Positions 1 through 9,307 of a stretch of DNA of 64,000 bases are shown piece after piece. Below the pieces are notes generated by a model. It saw only the letters and a program-made list of their open reading frames with translations, was not told the origin of the DNA and searched no databases. A program made the translations under genes and the position numbers. Source of the DNA: an uncultured Bacilli bacterium (GTDB lineage: Bacteria > Bacillota_I > Bacilli_A > RF39 > UBA660); assembly GCA_934141245.1 (NCBI GenBank), contig CAKPCB010000002.1, positions 43,076 through 107,075 on the forward strand, read 5' to 3'. Within the stretch, counting starts at the first letter, position 1; every line of letters begins with the position of its first letter.

Positions 1-1768
1 CTTATCAGTTCCAAAAAAGAATAGTAATTTTAACTTATTTAATTATAAAAAATATTTATATAATGAAAAAATATATTATATTTTAAATGTTAATGACTTT
101 AAAATAATTAAAAATTCTAGGAACCCTTTAACTATTTTAAAAAATAAAATTTCAAGGTCTTTAAATACTAATGATAAAGCAGATAAATATATAAGGGGAT
201 TTATATTAGGTGATAGTCAATACTTTGATAAAGAAATAATGGAAAAATATAGAAAAATTGGTATCAGTCATTTGTTTTCCATTTCTGGAATGCATATTTC
301 ATCAATAGTTATGTTAGCTGAAAGAATTTTAAGAAAGCTTAAAATAAAAGTAACAAATATATCCATTATTTGTATTATTTTTGTCTTAATTTATATGTAC
401 TTAACTAGTTATACTTCATCTGTTATGAGAAGTGGCATATTTTTTATTGTTTTAAGAGTAGTTAAAATATTAAGATTAAAAATAAGTACTATAAAATGCT
501 GCATATTAAGTCTGTTTATTGCAATCATGATTAATCCATTTATCGTGTATAAAATGGGATTTATTTATTCATTTGTGATTTCATTTTATTTAATTTGTTT
601 TAGAAAAGTTATATCCAATAAAAACAAATATATATTTAAAATACTTATAACTTCATTTATTTCTTGGATTGTAAGCATTCCTATTTCAACTTATTTTTTC
701 TTCAATATAAATATATTAACACCAATATATAATGTTATAGTAATACCTATTGTTACATTTTTAATATTTCCATTATCTTTTCTTACATTTGCTTTTAAAC
801 AATTAAAACCAATTTATTTAGGATGTATAAATCTTTTGGAGTTTTTAACTGATTGCTTTTGTAAATTAAATTCAAATATCATCTTAAAAAAGCCAAATCT
901 ATTTTTAATTATTGTTTACTTTATTATAATCACCTTTATTCTATATAGATTACAATATAATGATAAAAAATATATAGTTTTATTAGTATTAATGCTTTTA
1001 ATACATTATAACTATAATTATATCTTTAAAAGTACCTATTTATTGATGCTTGATGTTAATCAAGCGGATTGCTTTGTTCTTCATAACAACAATATTACTT
1101 TTATGATAGATACTGGTGGTGGAATTGGTTCCGAAAAAAATATAAGTGATGTGTTAAAATCATATGGAATAAGGAAAATAAACTATATCTTTATAACTCA
1201 CGGAGATTATGATCATATGGGTAGTGCAATTAATTTAGTAGAGAGCTTTAAAGTAGAGAATGTAGTTTTTAATTGTGGATTCTACAATGAATTAGAAAAA
1301 GAACTAATTAAAGTACTAAAAAAGAAAAAAATTAAATATTATACATGTATTAAAAGATTAAATATTGATAATAACAGATTATATTTCTTACAAACCAAAG
1401 AATATGATAATGAAAATGATAATAGTAATGTTATTTATACTGAACTTAATGATTATAAATTTTTATTTATGGGAGATGCTGGTATAGATAAAGAAAAGGA
1501 CATATTAAAAAAGTATAATTTAAAAAATATAGATTTTCTTAAGGTTGGTCATCATGGTTCAAATACAAGTAGTAGTGAAGAATTTATAAATAGTATTAAT
1601 CCAAAATACAGTTTGATCAGTGTTGGAAAAAATAATAGATATGGCCATCCTAAAAAGTCTGTATTGGATATATTAAAGAATAGTAAAGTTTATAGAACGG
1701 ATCAGGATGGAAGCATAGAAATAAAGATTAAAAATGGTGGATATAGTATAGAAATGTGTAAACCATAA
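1..1768 (+). CDS. comEC: DNA internalization competence protein ComEC/Rec2, 3' portion (5' end lies upstream of window); competence domain plus C-terminal metallo-beta-lactamase domain
   Basis: Reading frame open from nt 2 through the track ORF 239..1768; motifs GDSQYFD...GISHLFSISGMHI (ComEC competence domain) and MLDVNQADCFVL...ITHGDYDHMG...KVGHHGS (MBL fold). Confidence 0.85.
   Translation, partial: LSVPKKNSNFNLFNYKKYLYNEKIYYILNVNDFKIIKNSRNPLTILKNKISRSLNTNDKADKYIRGFILGDSQYFDKEIMEKYRKIGISHLFSISGMHISSIVMLAERILRKLKIKVTNISIICIIFVLIYMYLTSYTSSVMRSGIFFIVLRVVKILRLKISTIKCCILSLFIAIMINPFIVYKMGFIYSFVISFYLICFRKVISNKNKYIFKILITSFISWIVSIPISTYFFFNINILTPIYNVIVIPIVTFLIFPLSFLTFAFKQLKPIYLGCINLLEFLTDCFCKLNSNIILKKPNLFLIIVYFIIITFILYRLQYNDKKYIVLLVLMLLIHYNYNYIFKSTYLLMLDVNQADCFVLHNNNITFMIDTGGGIGSEKNISDVLKSYGIRKINYIFITHGDYDHMGSAINLVESFKVENVVFNCGFYNELEKELIKVLKKKKIKYYTCIKRLNIDNNRLYFLQTKEYDNENDNSNVIYTELNDYKFLFMGDAGIDKEKDILKKYNLKNIDFLKVGHHGSNTSSSEEFINSINPKYSLISVGKNNRYGHPKKSVLDILKNSKVYRTDQDGSIEIKIKNGGYSIEMCKP
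1518..1713. repeat. Direct repeat copy 1 (comEC 3' coding segment), ~98% identical to 2843..3038
   Basis: Manual alignment: 196 nt identical except about 3 substitutions (ggttc/ggctc, catcctaaaaag/cattctaaaagg). Confidence 0.9.
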
Positions 1769-1783
1769 GAAAGGAGAGAAGAT

Positions 1784-2680
1784 ATGGAAGATAAATATTA
1801 TGAAAATATAAAACAATGCTTAATTGATAATGAAATCTATAAAAAGGTAAAAGACTACTCAAAAGAAAGGAATACTGTTATAACCTATTATGAAATTGGT
1901 AGATTATTAAATGAGGCTGGTGGTAAGTATGGAGATAATATTATAGATGAATATTCTAAAAGGTTAGTTTTAGAAGTTGGCAAAAAGTATAATCGAAGAA
2001 CGTTATTTAGAATGAAACAATTTTATAATGTATTTAGTAATAAAAAAGTGTCAACACTGCTGACACAATTGAGCTGGTCACATTACTTGTTATTAATTTC
2101 TTTAAAAAATTATGATGAAATTATTTATTACATTAATATTGCAAAAAATAACAATTTGTCTCAAAGAGAATTACAAGAAAAAATAAAAAATAATGAATAT
2201 AATAGAATGTCAATAGAAACCAAAAATAAATTAATTTATGAAGAAAAATTGGAAGTAAAAGATTTAGTGCCAAATCCAATATTAATTAGAAATAAAAATA
2301 ATATTGAGATAATTAATGAAAAAGCATTACATAGTTTAATATTAGAAGATATAGAATCTTTTATGCAAGAACTTGGCAATTCATATAGTTTTATAGGTAG
2401 TGAATATAAGATTAAGATTGGTGACAGAAATCATCATATAGATTTGCTATTATTCAATATAAAGTTTAATTGTTATGTAGTAATTGAACTAAAAGTAATA
2501 GAATTTAAAGCTGAATACATATCACAAGTTCAAAAATACATGAATTACATAGATAAAAATGTAAAAGAACAATTTAATAATAATACAATTGGAATATTAA
2601 TATGCAAAAGGGAAAATAAATTTGTAATAGAATATTGTTCGGATGCAAGAATTGCTATAAGAGAATATGAGTTAGTGTGA
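1784..2680 (+). CDS. DUF1016/YhcG-like PDDEXK-fold nuclease family protein
   Basis: 298 aa; C-terminal D..(E)LK PD-(D/E)xK-like motif (IDLLLFN...YVVIELKVIEF) typical of YhcG/DUF1016; RBS GGAGAG upstream. Confidence 0.55.
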   Translation: MEDKYYENIKQCLIDNEIYKKVKDYSKERNTVITYYEIGRLLNEAGGKYGDNIIDEYSKRLVLEVGKKYNRRTLFRMKQFYNVFSNKKVSTLLTQLSWSHYLLLISLKNYDEIIYYINIAKNNNLSQRELQEKIKNNEYNRMSIETKNKLIYEEKLEVKDLVPNPILIRNKNNIEIINEKALHSLILEDIESFMQELGNSYSFIGSEYKIKIGDRNHHIDLLLFNIKFNCYVVIELKVIEFKAEYISQVQKYMNYIDKNVKEQFNNNTIGILICKRENKFVIEYCSDARIAIREYELV

Positions 2681-2842
2681 TATAATATCTATAGGATGTG
2701 ATTATATGACAAAAGAAGAAATTAATAAAATAATATTTAGTCTTGAAGCAGATGAAGATGTCATTGAGTTTGTTAACAAAAGAATAGCAGAGTTAGAAAA
2801 TAATTCAGTTGAAACTACAGTAGGGCATAATTATACTACAAC

Positions 2843-3094
2843 ATTTAAAAAATATAGATTTTCTTAAGGTTGGTCATCATGGCTCAAATACAAGTAGTAG
2901 TGAAGAATTTATAAATAGTATTAATCCAAAATACAGTTTGATCAGTGTTGGAAAAAATAATAGATATGGCCATTCTAAAAGGTCTGTATTGGATATATTA
3001 AAGAATAGTAAAGTTTATAGAACGGATCAGGATGGAAGTGTTATGTTTAAAATTAAAAATAATAAAATAAAAACATGTAGTGATAGTACTTAAA
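2843..3094 (+). pseudogene. Displaced duplicate of the comEC 3' end (repeat copy 2 plus an alternative 19-codon tail ...DGSVMFKIKNNKIKTCSDST*), no start codon, out of frame with the upstream small ORF
   Basis: Translates to KNIDFLKVGHHGSNTSSSEEFINSINPKYSLISVGKNNRYGHSKRSVLDILKNSKVYRTDQDGS..., the same peptide as ComEC residues ~430-495; divergence begins right after RTDQDGS. Confidence 0.8.
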
Positions 3095-3345
3095 GTCGAA
3101 ATATAGCTAAAATTGCTAAGTGAAATTTGACAATATAGCAGTATAATGATAATAAAAAATGTGAGATAAGCATATTATTAAGTGTAGAGGTTTATAATTG
3201 ATGAGAATTAAACTAATAAAATTTAATAAAAATGTAACATTTTATAATTATATTCCATAATATATACTGTAACACTATATAATAGTGTTTGTAATAGATT
3301 GGGGGTTAATTATAACCCTCTTTTATTTGTATAAATCATAGGGAC

Positions 3346-3374
3346 TTGAAAAAATACAAAAAATGTGCTATTAT
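3346..3374 (+). promoter_or_regulatory. Sigma-A type promoter TTGAAA-17-TATTAT upstream of the HD-domain gene
   Basis: TTGAAA 3346-3351, 17-nt spacer, TATTAT 3369-3374; RBS AAGAGGTG at 3397-3404 precedes the ATG at 3415. Confidence 0.5.
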
Positions 3375-3414
3375 GTTACATATCGATTAAAAAAGATATT
3401 AAGAGGTGTAATTA

Positions 3415-3927
3415 ATGGATTACGAAAGTAAGTTTTGTGATAAGCAATATTTAAGTATTGTTCAAGATATATTAAAAGATGATGAAGTTTTAAAACTAAA
3501 AGAAATCACTCATCATGGGCTTGATAGATTAGGGCATTCATTAAGAGTATCATATTATTCATATAAAATTAGTAAACTTTTTGGGTTAGATTATCAGAGT
3601 GCTGCAAGGGCAGGGCTATTACATGACTTCTTCTTTGAAAGCAGTAAAGGTAAAAAACCAACAGAAAGATTAAAAAATTTGGTTAATCATCCAAAATATG
3701 CATTAAAAAATGCAAACGATCGTTTTTACTTAAATAATATTGAGAAAAATATCATTGTATCGCATATGTTTCCTGTTTCCATAACAGTTCCAAGATATAT
3801 TGAGGGCTGGATTGTTAATTTAACAGATGATGTTGTTGCAATAGGTGAAATATGTTACAAGTCAAGAGTTAAATTATCATATGCAATTAATTTTATATTT
3901 ATATTTTTATTTGCAAATTTTAGATAG
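3415..3927 (+). CDS. HD domain (HDIG-type) phosphohydrolase family protein
   Basis: 170 aa; H..HG...H....LLHD motif (ITHHGLDRLGHSLRV...AGLLHDFFF). Confidence 0.6.
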   Translation: MDYESKFCDKQYLSIVQDILKDDEVLKLKEITHHGLDRLGHSLRVSYYSYKISKLFGLDYQSAARAGLLHDFFFESSKGKKPTERLKNLVNHPKYALKNANDRFYLNNIEKNIIVSHMFPVSITVPRYIEGWIVNLTDDVVAIGEICYKSRVKLSYAINFIFIFLFANFR

Positions 3928-3933
3928 AAAATA

Positions 3934-3961
3934 AAACAGTTGAAGCTGTTTTATTTTTTTG
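3934..3961 (+). terminator. Rho-independent terminator after the HD gene
   Basis: Stem aaaacag/ctgtttt with loop ttgaag, followed by a T-run. Confidence 0.6.
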
Positions 3962-4113
3962 TGAATTTTTTGTTTTTACCTAAAGTTATACAGATATTTA
4001 TATCAGTACTTAAATATTATTTTGACAAAGACTTAATGATTTTAAGTTCAGATTGTAAATTCTTTTAAAAAGTAGTACAATTATTATAGTTTATATAAAG
4101 GTGGTGATAACCT

Positions 4114-4734
4114 ATGGCAAATCAAATGCTGCAAACTTTTGATAATACATTTCTTGGTGTGTTAAACATGACGTGGCCTATGATTCTGATTTCTGTTGTG
4201 GTTTTATCTTCACTTAGATTATCCTACTTATTAAAAAGCAAGGAGAATTTTTGTTTATATAAAGAATTACTAAATTTATTTTTTGTGGTATATATATTAT
4301 GTTTGTTTCAAGTGGTTACTTTTCAAGATGTGAGTAGTTTTGGGACAAATAATTTTATTCCATTTAAAGAAATTCTTAGATATAATTTTGGTAGTAGATT
4401 ATTTATTAAGAATATAATTGGAAATGTTGTTATGTTTATACCATATGGTTTTTTTATCTCATATTATGGGAAATCAAATAAATGGAAAGGTGCATTGTTA
4501 CTAGTACTTATCGCTTCTACCGTAATTGAATGCACTCAACTAGCAATCGGTAGAGTATTTGATGTTGATGATATACTATTAAATGTTGTTGGCGGTATGC
4601 TTGGCTATTTAATTTATAAATTATTAAATAAAACTGCTAATATTTTGCCAAAAGTGTTTAAATCAGCAATATTTTTGGATATTGTTACAATTATATTGTT
4701 TATAATTTTTTCTGCTTATATTATATGGAGGTAA
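4114..4734 (+). CDS. VanZ-like family membrane protein
   Basis: 206 aa polytopic membrane protein; FIPFKEIL...NVVMFIPYGFF...DVDDILLNVVGGMLGY pattern typical of the VanZ family. Confidence 0.55.
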   Translation: MANQMLQTFDNTFLGVLNMTWPMILISVVVLSSLRLSYLLKSKENFCLYKELLNLFFVVYILCLFQVVTFQDVSSFGTNNFIPFKEILRYNFGSRLFIKNIIGNVVMFIPYGFFISYYGKSNKWKGALLLVLIASTVIECTQLAIGRVFDVDDILLNVVGGMLGYLIYKLLNKTANILPKVFKSAIFLDIVTIILFIIFSAYIIWR

Positions 4735-8422: not shown

Positions 8423-9307
8423 TTAAAGCATATTAACTATTTTATTTATTAATTCTAAAACAATTTTAAGAGTTTTGTTATCTTTATCGTTTATGGGATT
8501 ATATTCAACTATATCTATTGATTTAATTAAATCTTTATGTTTTAAAAATTCATCAACAATCTTGAATAAATGTTTAGTATTTATACCGTCTTTATATCCT
8601 ACAGATATTCCAGGTGCAATAATCGGATCAAGAACATCTATATCAATGCTTAAGTGTATTCCATTTGTGTTTTGTGTTGCGATTTGAATTGCGTTATTTA
8701 CATTTGTTTCAATATTTCCTGATATAACATCATTTGTTGAATAGACTTTAATTTTACTATTATCCAAGTTTACCTGTTCTAAGGTATCAATATCTCTTGC
8801 TCCAATTATTACAGTATTGTTATTTCTGAAAAAATTACCATCATGGAATTTTGTAAGTTCATATCCATTATTTTTTGTTACAGTAGCAAGTGGAAGCCCA
8901 TGTATATTCCCCGATGCTGTTGTTTTAAATGTATTAAAATCAGGGTGCGTATCTACCCAAATTATTCCTAGTCTATCATTAGTTTTAATTGAAGCAAGTG
9001 CAGATGCAATTGCGATACTATGATCTCCACCTATCACAATATTTATTGAATCGTCATCGCTATTTTTTAATATTGTTTGATATAGTTCATCGTCAAATTT
9101 ATTAATTCTATCAAAGTTTTTTCTTAAATCATTTTTATCTTGACTTTTGCTAGTGCAATCACAGGTAACATCAATAATTTTATTTATTTTTTTCAAATCT
9201 AATTTCTTTATATATTCTTTAACAATTATAGGCCCTTTACTAGCGCCATCTATATTTACTCCGAGATCTGTACAAGCATTTATAATATTAATTTTTTTTG
9301 TATTCAT
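8423..9307 (-). CDS. Arginase/agmatinase (ureohydrolase) family protein
   Basis: 294 aa; GGDHSIA, DTHPD and SIDIDVLDP manganese-ligand motifs. Confidence 0.7.
   Translation of the reverse strand: MNTKKINIINACTDLGVNIDGASKGPIIVKEYIKKLDLKKINKIIDVTCDCTSKSQDKNDLRKNFDRINKFDDELYQTILKNSDDDSINIVIGGDHSIAIASALASIKTNDRLGIIWVDTHPDFNTFKTTASGNIHGLPLATVTKNNGYELTKFHDGNFFRNNNTVIIGARDIDTLEQVNLDNSKIKVYSTNDVISGNIETNVNNAIQIATQNTNGIHLSIDIDVLDPIIAPGISVGYKDGINTKHLFKIVDEFLKHKDLIKSIDIVEYNPINDKDNKTLKIVLELINKIVNML

Follow-up and report, generated by a model that had tools for sequence, protein, structure and literature searches.

In staphylococci, SCC elements occupy the 3' end of rlmH (orfX) by means of a large serine recombinase, and ccr-less pseudo-SCC occur in composite arrays. 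In Streptococcus thermophilus, CIMEs occupy the fda 3' end together with ICESt1 and ICESt3; their integrase is of the tyrosine type, the att repeats are short, and the helpers are conjugative. In E. coli, e14 and phage 21 enter icd and supply a diverged 3' end, leaving the old end downstream as a pseudogene repeat. Rhs and CdiA loci undergo C-terminal displacement that produces orphan modules, the newest nearest the expressed gene and the older ones decaying. ComEC is the channel for DNA import in transformable bacteria. Two Streptococcus pyogenes prophages with serine recombinases, Phi1207.3 and Phi10394.4, integrate into comEC, and these insertions simply disrupt the gene at a GA dinucleotide (PMC4260502). 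Prophages are known to inactivate competence genes and so to avoid deletion by transformation. The S. pyogenes insertions fit the idea that shutting down transformation lets prophages evade chromosomal curing (PMC12637031). Genes for DUF1016 and dinD/RhuM proteins are statistically enriched in type I R-M hsdS shufflon loci, where inverted repeats and invertases switch specificity (PMC9881135).

Here we describe an insert in comEC in a 64-kb stretch of DNA from an uncultured Bacilli bacterium (64,000 nucleotides, hereafter the window). We interpret it as a decayed, nonautonomous mobile cassette that lacks an integrase and is lodged in the 3' part of comEC, belonging to an att-associated family that has recently spread by homologous recombination, and assign this reading a probability of roughly 0.7. 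To what could be read from the sequence alone, the comparison with relatives adds lineage-wide arrays, a homology block of ~570 bp, a 14-nt junction that truncates a small ORF, and a phage attachment site.

Like SCC, the comEC loci hold co-oriented tandem cassettes at one location in the 3' portion of a conserved gene, with att-type repeats between units, and the recombinase is of the large serine type; many cassettes have no recombinase and would depend on supply in trans, and the cargo is accessory and defense-like. Unlike SCC, the target falls within the sequence for the catalytic metallo-beta-lactamase domain, some 570 bp short of the stop codon, so that a cassette must carry about 189 replacement codons, and each insertion leaves a long displaced gene fragment. 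The integrases found here are phage-borne only, and recent spread looks like homologous recombination. CIMEs are comparable as nonautonomous, att-flanked elements beside the 3' end of a housekeeping gene that build arrays by accretion, with mobilization proposed to use the recombinase of a related element, but at comEC the candidate helpers are serine-integrase phages and the repeats are long coding pieces. As with e14 and phage 21, the frame is restored by the 3' end of the element and the original end persists downstream in a direct repeat. Whereas e14 is a single element with its own integrase, the window cassette has no recombinase, its right junction resembles a microhomology deletion, and relatives have arrays.

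The topology of a full-length gene followed by co-oriented 3' fragments, each with a conserved piece and its own partner gene, is identical to that of Rhs and CdiA loci, including the newest module nearest the expressed gene and the decay of older ones. Unlike those, the variable payload is a separate gene and not a toxin domain plus its immunity protein, the gene that hosts the array encodes a DNA-uptake channel, and the fragments are delimited by arms of a phage att site. We did not classify the locus as an Rhs/CDI-type displacement array; the displaced segments are conserved metallo-beta-lactamase halves under purifying selection, the cargo is a nuclease or Bro-N gene and not immunity-like, and the topology is all that is common to both. 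Integron gene cassettes, which are defined by an IntI tyrosine integrase and attC sites, were also rejected, the separators being comEC fragments and serine-integrase att arms, with no integrase in the loci. [quoted passage not shown] Like hsdS shufflons, the loci place the same two cargo families beside repeated partial gene copies with site-specific recombination; unlike shufflons, the repeats are direct and show no sign of inversion.

Organization of the comEC 3' region

The features are as follows, all on the + strand.
1..1768 (listed ORF 239..1768): comEC, DNA-uptake channel, N-terminus cut by the window start
1199..1225: HGDYDHMG codons of comEC (CACGG AGATTATGATCAT...), intact and unoccupied in the window
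1518..1713: repeat copy 1, in expressed comEC, residues 605-669 of the 687-aa protein
1714..1768: tail1, cassette-supplied replacement C-terminus (...SIEIKIKNGGYSIEMCKP, then stop), assigned by comparison with locus L096
1784..2680: yhcG-like PD-(D/E)XK nuclease gene, cassette cargo
2706..2867: orf53, truncated small ORF, its last codons out of frame into repeat copy 2
2843..2856: right junction, 14-nt microhomology ATTTAAAAAATATA common to the intact small ORF and comEC
2843..3093: original comEC 3' end, now displaced, made up of repeat copy 2 (2843-3038) and tail2 with stop (3039-3093)
3301..3320: intrinsic-terminator-like hairpin, original end of the comE operon
3415..3927: HD-domain gene, conserved right flank

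The comEC protein matches the Pfam domains Competence and Lactamase_B, and at full length has 687 aa (L081, 4291..6354 of the full contig). Aligned in register, 1518-1713 and 2843-3038 form a direct repeat with 193/196 identities; a repeat search of the window reports the pair as 1497-1735 and 2822-3060, and found no third copy in the 64 kb. The edges are sharp, with identity collapsing at 1714/3039, where the differing tails begin, and at 1517/2842. One mismatch is synonymous (1558), and the others change Pro to Ser in the conserved YGHP (1649) and Lys to Arg (1656). The insert spans 1714-3038 (1,325 bp) and comprises a foreign comEC tail, yhcG, the truncated small ORF, and one repeat copy. 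The displaced end has neither a start codon nor a 5' part, and the hairpin downstream of tail2 is the sole + strand terminator-like site in 1400-3500. The original prediction had been of a 196-bp, ~98% identical duplication of the comEC 3' end, in which copy 1 continues through a tail to the functional stop and copy 2 carries a different tail and no start codon. The duplication is real, comEC is open through tail1 to its stop at 1766-1768, and the copies part from 3039 onward.

Empty and occupied alleles

A strain ~99% identical to the window (L082) has an empty site, in which comEC with a single repeat copy and tail2 is followed by the terminator. There and in L084 and L089, comEC ends ...DGSVMFKIKNNKIKTCSDST after one repeat copy; in L082 that end lies 321 nt before the HD gene, the distance from tail2 to this gene in occupied and empty alleles alike. 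Window bases 1-1713 are 98.8% identical to L082, and 2843-4200 correspond to L082 7429-8786 at 99.0%, with copy 2 and tail2 contiguous with comEC there. The occupied arrangement recurs in five other independent assemblies (L083, L085, L092, L093, and L094). Flanks of occupied contigs are 100% identical to one another, and those of empty contigs differ by 0.5-1%. An empty site with tail2 is also seen in a strain of 94% identity (L088). Given the empty site in so close a strain, tail1, yhcG, orf53, and one repeat copy are an insertion polymorphism, and copy 2 with tail2 is the original comEC end, displaced. Repeat copy 1 is 100% identical to the sole copy in L082, L084, and L089; copy 2 bears three derived changes, at which all three empty alleles have the copy-1 states. 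The insertion into the comEC 3' end with a replacement C-terminus that had been postulated is supported by these three empty alleles, which have the arrangement that the proposed search of related loci was expected to reveal. The insertion is in the coding 3' part with the frame kept by element sequence, and the original 3' end is kept as a direct repeat, with the empty site present in relatives; the element encodes no site-specific recombinase of its own.

The window comEC is a chimera, resident up to 1713 and cassette-supplied beyond. Its left junction, a homologous crossover, falls within continuous homology. Tail1 has a counterpart of the same type (SIEIKIKNDGYSIETCKP) in L096, from a species with a different downstream flank, where it precedes a 91%-identical yhcG. 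Identity to L096 is ~80% in the repeat block, 90-100% from ~1743, and falls to 40% immediately past the yhcG stop; the excess of tail1 and yhcG over the adjacent comEC block indicates that they were imported. The 14 nt of the right junction also occur at 1518-1531 in comEC. The alignment there reads ACATTTAAAAAATATATTTCAG in L104, TAATTTAAAAAATATAGATTTT in comEC, and ACATTTAAAAAATATAGATTTT in the window.

Cargo genes

yhcG starts 15 nt past the comEC stop, on the same strand, and is preceded by AAGGAGAG. Both YhcG Pfam domains (PF17761 and PF06250) exceed their gathering thresholds: DUF1016_N at 7.9e-26 (91.2 bits, cut-off 32.8) and YhcG_C at 8.5e-35 (120.4 bits, cut-off 32.5). The product also matches PADLOC PDC-S02 (8e-61) and phrog_22762. 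PDC-S02 and PDC-S13, the entries hit in the PADLOC search, are both candidate defense systems. Read by eye from the translation, a D...ELK motif is present (HHIDLL...VIELK, HHIDLLLFNIKFNCYVVIELK). Our literature search found no experimental paper on anti-phage or nuclease activity of PDC-S02/YhcG. The cargo is probably an anti-phage or anti-mobile-DNA nuclease transcribed with the competence operon.

A small ORF of the orf53 type always accompanies this yhcG lineage and lies directly 3' of yhcG in the comEC arrays L104, L100, and L098. Its homologs (P0121-P0135) run on as ...TTFK(K/E)YISEKTHYKAGEKLEDAE, up to 92 aa; orf53 has no Pfam match. Neither cassette ORF has a recombinase domain in Pfam, homologs of phage serine integrases are absent from the cassette, the 64-kb window, and ~100 related comEC loci, and ~35 cargo proteins scanned against Pfam include no integrase. 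The domain and PDC-S02 matches bear out the yhcG-like nuclease that had been called at 1784-2680, and the surveyed loci bear out the lack of an integrase in the insert. The small ORF had been given as 55 codons at 2706-2873; it does run out of frame into copy 2, but it ends at 2867 and has 53 codons.

A cassette family in related gut Bacilli

We surveyed 58 loci of related uncultured gut Bacilli with at least 1.5 kb after comEC; most are metagenome-assembled genomes, in which repeats can cause chimeric joins, and their labels are Bacilli, Tenericutes, Erysipelotrichaceae, and Clostridium sp. CAG. In 51 of the 58, the region after comEC holds yhcG, a Bro-N gene, comEC 3' fragments (one to five, on the same strand), or a combination of these. 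Extra fragments occur in 35 loci, all co-oriented with comEC, yhcG in 43, and Bro-N in 24; seven have none of these. The standard unit begins with H, by which we mean the 3' half of comEC counted from the HGDxDH codon onward (~570 bp, about 189 codons). Cargo (yhcG or a Bro-N/DinD-like gene, sometimes with more genes) starts 11-16 nt past the H stop, and the unit closes with a terminator hairpin and one phage attP arm abutting the displaced resident H (H'). The Bro-N/DinD-like gene, which has no nuclease domain, fills the same slot in the same architecture in 20 loci, and the arrays hold many unrelated cargo genes.

Cargo segments of different species match at 88-99% identity even where the comEC cores of those species reach no more than 66% or fail to align, which shows horizontal transfer between species. 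Where selected pairs were compared, the tract they have in common starts on its left within H or at the HGD codon, and blastn homology between the window and other species begins at 1200-1202. Part of this jump in identity reflects stronger protein constraint: pN is 0.14 in H versus 0.39 upstream. Across random species pairs, the saturation of synonymous divergence in H (median pS 0.57) comes close to that upstream (0.60), so H is not universally exchanged, and recent exchange is shown for a subset of pairs alone.

A phage attachment site at the HGD codon

Most of the long comEC fragments begin at the HGDxDH codon. Among all 53 fragments, 28 begin at residues 497-501, preceded by one of two conserved motifs, A (27 nt; 16 loci) or B (12 loci), that are found on this strand and at this place only. 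Motif A, at 27/27 nt plus CATGG, is identical to one arm of an inverted-repeat phage attP (the L108/L110 phage), which adjoins a 473-aa integrase gene in IMG/VR phage contigs. The integrase domains (Resolvase, Recombinase, and Zn_ribbon_recom) are those of a large serine integrase. In relatives, such phages use an attB whose crossover core and B' arm are located at the HGD position. L124 is a lysogen attL in comEC, with ...NYLIIT/HG joined to the phage P' arm plus integrase, and L109 has the same kind of junction. Temperate phages with a large serine integrase therefore target this comEC codon, and the cognate recombinase of the cassette-bounding arm uses the same chromosomal site. The junction types found are P-O-B', P-O-P', and B-O-P'. 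Under known large-serine-integrase rules, integration of a P-O-B' (attR-type) circle into attB is not obviously allowed. Even in tracts that are otherwise nearly identical, the HGDxDH codons at the att core differ.

Half-sites of a known recombinase lie at cassette ends in the family, not in the window copy. Motifs A and B do not occur in the window, and whereas relatives have the phage P arm at the right junction, the window copy lacks recognizable att at both junctions. The window cassette, from which the att arm is gone, appears to be linked to the att-bounded family by its homology to L104 and by shared architecture.

Origin of the window cassette

The displaced fragments of relatives are bounded by a phage att arm at the target codon of the integrase, which suggests that the comEC 3' duplications trace back to site-specific events at a phage attachment site. 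Integrase genes being absent from every cassette, any site-specific step must depend on an enzyme provided in trans. The more recent spread would have been by homologous recombination, in which H serves as a homology arm that travels with the cassette. Because comEC itself encodes the channel for uptake, natural transformation would be the probable route if these bacteria are competent. In the window, a left crossover at the conserved RTDQDGS codons (1713/1714) would have replaced only the tail. The precursor may have resembled L104, which has yhcG, the small ORF, a terminator, a degenerate motif B, and a 183-aa H' in undeleted form. Loss of ~790 nt between the 14-nt microhomologies would then have deleted the att arm and cut short orf53 and H' alike. 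The former comEC end, pushed 1,325 bp downstream, would now be a decaying relic, and the occupied allele would segregate against the empty one within the species. Both repeat copies are of resident type and no single simple crossover with a foreign donor fits, so we assume a multistep history or a conspecific donor. The earlier likening to elements that integrate at gene 3' ends fits the serine-integrase attP arm bounding displaced fragments in relatives, and the proposal of either a decayed element or a recombination-installed cassette agrees with the missing integrase.

Several other explanations deserve weighing. The occupied arrangement could be ancestral, with the empty alleles produced by deletion between the direct repeats and no recent insertion. 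Direct repeats of 196 bp separated by 1.3 kb would be prone to deletion, the empty alleles are exactly what a crossover between 1657 and 1713 would yield, and the orf53/H' junction is not brand new, being shared by P0122 (89% ORF identity) and by L115, where it sits in a more decayed and more complex array. We nevertheless judge this unlikely: the 94%-identical L088 is likewise empty with tail2, occupied flanks are mutually identical whereas empty ones differ, and the L096 comparison marks tail1 and yhcG as imported, so that even if some empty alleles are deletions the cassette entered the lineage horizontally. We regard as very unlikely that yhcG is a free-standing homing endonuclease copied in by break repair, with the comEC tail co-converted. 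A nuclease-less gene fills the same slot in 20 loci, unrelated cargo is common in arrays, and homing, which inserts without target duplication, leaves neither the 196-bp duplication nor phage att arms; it would also need both alleles in one cell with the nuclease pre-expressed, which transformation does not provide. This is set against a PD-(D/E)XK nuclease with an intact motif that is always attached to the comEC 3' end, short comEC tracts that accompany yhcG in recent transfers (-88, -44, and -11; -55 in the window), and a replaced tail that could remove the target site.

The downstream fragments might instead be silent cassettes for switching the ComEC C-terminus, as in pilS- or vls-like systems; the benefit suggested for such switching is escape from phage integration or from a ComEC binder. 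All fragments are co-oriented, 22 of 23 long ones keep an open frame as far as the native stop, with the same dN/dS (0.08-0.24) as expressed copies, and the att-core codons vary as noted above. The count of intact ORFs is biased to single-HSP fragments, however, and expression until recently explains the low dN/dS (L007_F1 is 99% identical to the expressed L004 copy). Many fragments have internal deletions or truncations, that of the window retains just 83 codons with a Pro->Ser change in a conserved motif, and return of a fragment to the expression site is demonstrated in no case; we find switching highly improbable. An assembly artifact, a collapsed or misjoined repeat, has next to no probability. 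Although the short contigs L084, L086, L087, L089, and L090 start inside or at the edge of the repeat, each junction is crossed by the five other occupied assemblies, which come from different samples and assemblers. The copies differ at three positions, L082 combines copy-1 SNP states with tail2 (a combination missing from an occupied genome), and the SNPs cap exact repeat stretches at 90 nt, below k = 141 (the L082 name is k141_451605).

Implications and a possible role in repairing comEC

If the reading as a decayed, recombination-spread cassette is right, a single comEC codon across a whole order of uncultured, genome-reduced gut bacteria may display the other side of the conflict between prophages and transformation. 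Serine-integrase phages split comEC, and integrase-less cassettes with a spare 3' half and a candidate defense gene would keep the gene whole, displaced halves accumulating as a fossil record. It would also be a new landing pad for defense genes in unculturable bacteria, a natural case of cargo between portable homology arms and att half-sites, and a source of directly testable serine integrase/att pairs with a defined 5-nt core. For annotation, the 3' third of comEC can differ in history from the remainder of the gene in these genomes, and downstream "comEC fragments" are not random pseudogenes.

More tentatively, and with a chance that we consider low, units of comEC 3' half, cargo, and P arm could be minimal satellites that mirror the phage, competence-repair cassettes delivering a defense nuclease. 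The circular form would carry an attR-type site (P-O-B'), and integrase with a directionality factor would insert it into the attL of a comEC split by a phage or mini-element. The outcome would be a restored, intact comEC (B-O-B') and a P-O-P' junction, with the invader trapped on the downstream side; the reverse step, excision of the units, would need only integrase (attB x attP). Such satellites would add a new party to the conflict that sets transformation, as chromosomal curing, against prophages that disable it. In L118 the sites run comEC-H-yhcG...P_A-O-P'[unit]P_C-O-P'[unit]P_C-O-B'-H', the order that this proposal predicts.

A polymorphic insertion at the 3′ end of comEC

The original prediction of a duplicated comEC 3′ end holds, with 193 of 196 bases common to window positions 1518-1713 and 2843-3038. 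The edges of the repeat are sharp: identity collapses at 1517/2842 and again at 1714/3039, where two differing yet homologous comEC tails start (tail1 after copy 1, tail2 after copy 2). No third copy occurs within the 64-kb window. The comEC product matches Pfam Competence and Lactamase_B, and the predicted YhcG-like nuclease is borne out by matches of the 1784-2680 product to DUF1016_N and YhcG_C. The small ORF that follows (orf53) comprises 53 codons (2706-2867), not the 55 (2706-2873) given earlier. It has no Pfam or PHROG match; its sole PADLOC match, to AbiEi, is at chance level (E 0.0097) and was rejected. The G+C content of the window is 25.9%, and no tRNA genes or Rfam families at gathering threshold were found in the whole 64 kb.

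Features of the duplicated region (window positions)
1518-1713: copy 1 of the repeat, in the expressed comEC
1558: mismatch between copies, synonymous
1649: mismatch between copies, Pro to Ser, in the conserved YGHP
1656: mismatch between copies, Lys to Arg
1784-2680: yhcG
2706-2867: orf53
2843-3038: copy 2 of the repeat, followed by tail2

Same-species contigs were recovered from public assemblies by exact-protein lookup with the HD-domain protein (3415-3927) and YhcG, and the insertion is polymorphic among them. The window's own contig (L081/L091) is included. The empty site that had been predicted exists: L082, a contig from another sample (98.8-99.0% identical), joins window 1-1713 directly to 2843-4200. 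Its comEC encodes 687 aa ending in ...DGSVMFKIKNNKIKTCSDST and is followed by 321 nt and then the HD gene. The same join is present in two further contigs (L084 and L089), and a 94% strain (L088) is empty too, with a tail2-type end. This join defines an insert of 1,325 bp (1714-3038) and identifies copy 2 plus tail2 as the displaced original end of comEC, as had been proposed. At the three SNPs all three empty alleles (L082, L084, and L089) have the copy-1 state and the derived states are in copy 2; the displaced end is apparently under relaxed constraint. Five contigs (L083, L085, L092, L093, and L094), obtained with other assemblers from other samples, span the occupied arrangement, and for the window we exclude an assembly artefact. 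A short contig (L115; 914 nt, coverage ~1.6x) has the orf53|comEC junction of the window and a 99%-identical relic; its upstream part comprises another cargo gene, the 27-nt motif B described below, a comEC fragment stub, and an internally deleted yhcG. The contig points to a third allele of greater complexity, either in the window species or close to it.

Junctions of the insert

We compared the window with L096, a contig from another species, in which the downstream neighbourhood differs. The repeat block is ~80% identical, tail1 and yhcG are 90-100% identical, and identity is 40% directly past the yhcG stop, a pattern that places the left crossover at the conserved RTDQDGS codons. The comEC of L096 ends in ...SIEIKIKNDGYSIETCKP, which is of the tail1 type and precedes its 90-100%-identical yhcG, in agreement with the earlier claim that the insert supplied a replacement C-terminus.

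The right junction is a microhomology. Homologs of orf53, invariably 3′ of yhcG in comEC arrays, run on as ...TTFK(K/E)YISEKTHYKAGEKLEDAE for up to 92 aa. The sequence ATTTAAAAAATATA is common to the intact small ORF and comEC (14 nt; 2843-2856 = 1518-1531), and the window changes from one to the other within those 14 nt. The closest complete relative, L104 (77.6% identical over window 1154-2856), has yhcG and the small ORF, then ~440 nt leading to a terminator hairpin, a degenerate version of a 27-nt motif, and a 183-codon comEC fragment; another yhcG and an HD gene complete the order. The order of events that we infer for the window lineage is that a ~790-nt deletion between microhomologies would have converted an L104-like architecture into the present one. 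A single simple crossover was rejected, since one copy should be of foreign type after either Campbell insertion or double crossover with a foreign donor, whereas both are of the resident type; a conspecific donor, several steps, or later homogenisation must therefore be assumed. A second recurrent, microhomology-based junction class fuses the Bro-N 3′ end (...KSLKELEK) to comEC at about residue 597 (EKDILxKYN; L029 ~8350, L051 ~8384, and L066 ~5680); the window junction lies nearby, at residue 605.

Arrays downstream of comEC in related genomes

Scanning species-representative genomes with the comEC protein, we retained the best 80 loci (44-57% identity), all from MAGs of uncultured gut or rumen organisms (labels: Bacilli, Tenericutes, Erysipelotrichaceae, or Clostridium sp. 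CAG). Array counts are based on the 58 of these with at least 1.5 kb past comEC; most relatives are MAGs, in which chimeric joins at conserved repeats are possible. Additional comEC 3′ fragments, between one and five per locus and always in the comEC orientation, are present in 35 of the 58 loci. A yhcG gene was identified in 43 and a Bro-N/DinD-like gene in 24, and seven loci have no extra fragment, yhcG, or Bro-N. At 50 of 58 loci no more than 120 nt separate the comEC stop from the start of yhcG or Bro-N; the gap is 11-13 nt in the case of yhcG and 16 nt in that of Bro-N. Further cargo includes NUDIX, histidine phosphatase, DUF218, FGase-like, radical-SAM-like, and DUF488-like genes and many orphans, and most ORFs (129/136) are co-oriented with comEC. 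There is no recombinase among ~35 scanned array cargo proteins. Serine-integrase homologs are absent from ~100 comEC loci and the 64-kb window, consistent with the initial observation that the cassette carries no integrase. A fixed link between tail type and cargo type was rejected, as MF-type tails are found ahead of Bro-N, yhcG-1, and yhcG-2. Beside the comE operon, one locus (L017, 4152-4746) has a full-length OLE RNA (Rfam RF01071, 368 bits) just 5′ of comEA-comEC, and two have an adjoining glmS ribozyme (L003 4519-4666; L004 4550-4695, - strand), an ordinary element that serves as a synteny marker.

Cargo has been transferred between species. Genomes whose comEC 5′ parts are unalignable or no more than 66% identical have cargo segments with 88-99% identity; in one pair (L001 and L007; 99.3% over 596 nt) the segment belongs to the first module in one genome and the second in the other. 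The tract common to two species stops directly after the cargo and begins either within the comEC 3′ half (361, 88, 44, or 11 nt ahead of the stop) or where that half starts. Of eleven selected pairs, one simply consists of close relatives; in the other ten, the step in identity (38-60% to 84-95%) lies no more than ~20 nt away from the HGD codon. Universal recent exchange between species of the comEC 3′ half from the HGDxDH codon (H, ~189 codons) was rejected: the random-pair median pS, nearly saturated, is 0.57 in H versus 0.60 upstream. In random pairs pN is 0.14 in the 3′ half versus 0.39 upstream, so part of the general identity step reflects protein constraint. Judging from these comparisons, recent exchange is seen in only a subset of pairs.

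Fragment boundaries are phage attachment sites

Just over half of the displaced fragments (28/53) start at residues 497-501, in the HGDxDHMG motif. Ahead of the H codon in these 28 are a terminator hairpin and a conserved non-comEC 27-mer, either motif A (ATTCGACTTACTTTTTGACAATCACCA, 16 loci) or motif B (ATTCGTATGCATAAACGTATGTCACCA, 12 loci). The 27-mers are confined to fragment boundaries, on one strand only; neither occurs in the window, with up to 3 mismatches by sequence search or up to 6 by regex scan. Rfam (at gathering thresholds) and ARAGORN detected no known RNA or tRNA at the junctions in the window or in nine array loci, so we rejected an origin of the 27-mers as tRNA or riboswitch pieces.

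Motif A is present in two IMG/VR phage contigs, where the order is motif A, CATGG, an inverted copy of the outer half of motif A (AGGTATGTGGTTAGTAAGTCGAAT), and the stop codon of an ORF whose 473-aa product has Resolvase, Recombinase, and Zn-ribbon domains. By its layout, this site is a classical large-serine-integrase attP. Related integrases (65-73% identical) have an attP with the same CCATG core and related arms. Motif B has no exact match in viral contigs, and a related P arm was found only in L111 (18/27 by our own count). A metagenome scan with the other arm recovered L124, in which comEC (...SKLNYLIIT|HG) is joined to the phage arm and a 93%-identical integrase, making this a lysogen attL; L109 has a junction of the same kind. 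The scan also revealed P-O-P′ junctions (P, phage arm; O, core; B, comEC arm) inside integrase-less comEC arrays. One of these, L118, has the order comEC, yhcG, orf147, P_A-O-P′, orf255, P_C-O-P′, XRE-like ORF, P_C-O-B′, comEC fragment. As a speculation, this order fits intermolecular attL x attR recombination, with P-O-B′ as the attR type. No viral contig carries H, so no phage was found to bring its own replacement.

Some junctions depart from this pattern. At L036 4727-4909, P-arm-like sequence is joined straight to ...HGSKTSS, the CATGG of the HGD codon being replaced by the second comEC CATGG (window 1553-1557, within VGHHGS). Either a secondary core-like site or loss of the DNA separating the two CATGG motifs could account for it. 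In L121 (a 166-kb contig, 274-302; the partner is G+C-rich DNA), L119, L123, and L128, the phage P′ arm adjoins non-comEC sequence; these junctions may represent secondary integration sites, other hosts, or chimeric contigs. In 3′ halves otherwise near-identical between species, mismatches cluster in the HGDxDH codons at +2 to +14 (att core and B′ arm), within the first ~15 nt past the H codon (L001/L045, L017/L034, and L034/L042, among other pairs). The cluster could reflect escape from phage integration, or merely the true edge of the recombination tract.

Origin of the cassettes

The feature in the window is best explained as a decayed representative of a non-autonomous cassette family, in which each cassette would comprise a replacement comEC 3′ end and cargo. 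The family would accrete at the attachment site of comEC-targeting serine-integrase phages, presumably using their integrase in trans, and would spread from strain to strain by homologous recombination, with the comEC piece as homology arm and transformation as the putative vehicle. Ancestral synteny with secondary deletions can account for some empty alleles but leaves the foreign tail and yhcG unexplained. Homing by the YhcG nuclease fails to account for the duplications, the att arms, or the occurrence of non-nuclease cargo at the same position.

A silent-cassette system that varies ComEC is suggested by the displaced fragments of ~189 codons (L003, L004, L007, L017, L023, L045, and others), 22 of 23 of which are open to the native stop, although this count is biased to intact fragments. 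Fragment dN/dS values (0.08-0.24) are indistinguishable from those of expressed copies, but open frames and low dN/dS are also expected from recent expression. The intact long fragments point either to fast turnover or to some force preserving reading frames.

Gene-targeting integration with a replacement 3′ end is known from e14 at icd, and recombinase-less cassettes accrete at the 3′ end of a conserved gene in SCC at rlmH and CIMEs at fda. Also known are a serine-recombinase prophage in comEC, Phi1207.3 (PMC4260502), and conflict between transformation and prophages (PMC12637031). We found no description of comEC arrays or of the combined feature set in the open-access literature. The combination for which we found no precedent has four elements: 570-bp replacement of half a comEC catalytic domain, displaced halves in arrays with phage att arms at their boundaries, cargo of the yhcG or Bro-N kind, and comEC chimeras throughout a bacterial order.

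Cargo and transcription

The window YhcG matches PADLOC PDC-S02 (8e-61) and Bro-N cargo matches PDC-S13 (3e-96), PDC entries being candidates only; both also match phage protein families without assigned function. A D...ELK nuclease motif is present by eye in the window YhcG. DUF1016 and dinD/RhuM genes are reportedly enriched beside recombining hsdS loci (PMC9881135). The cargo may function in defence.

Between 1400 and 3500, the + strand has a single terminator-like site, 3′ of tail2; co-transcription of yhcG, orf53, and the relic with comEA-comEC is therefore probable. An antisense terminator-like hairpin lies within yhcG at window 2048-2066 (- strand; GTGTCAGCAGTGTTGACAC plus a T-run), and a similar one in the yhcG of L004 (7810-7828). 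The TTGACA of motif A and the TATGAT of the HGDYDH codons form the best sigma-70-like match in the L004 region (9002-9029; 11/12, spacer 16), as likewise at every motif-A junction. This promoter-like match could drive the displaced fragments and the cargo behind them. Conservation of motif A as a promoter was rejected, since motif B lacks the -35 element and the phage attP accounts for the conservation. Motif B supplies an in-frame ATG (MHKRMSP-HGD...).
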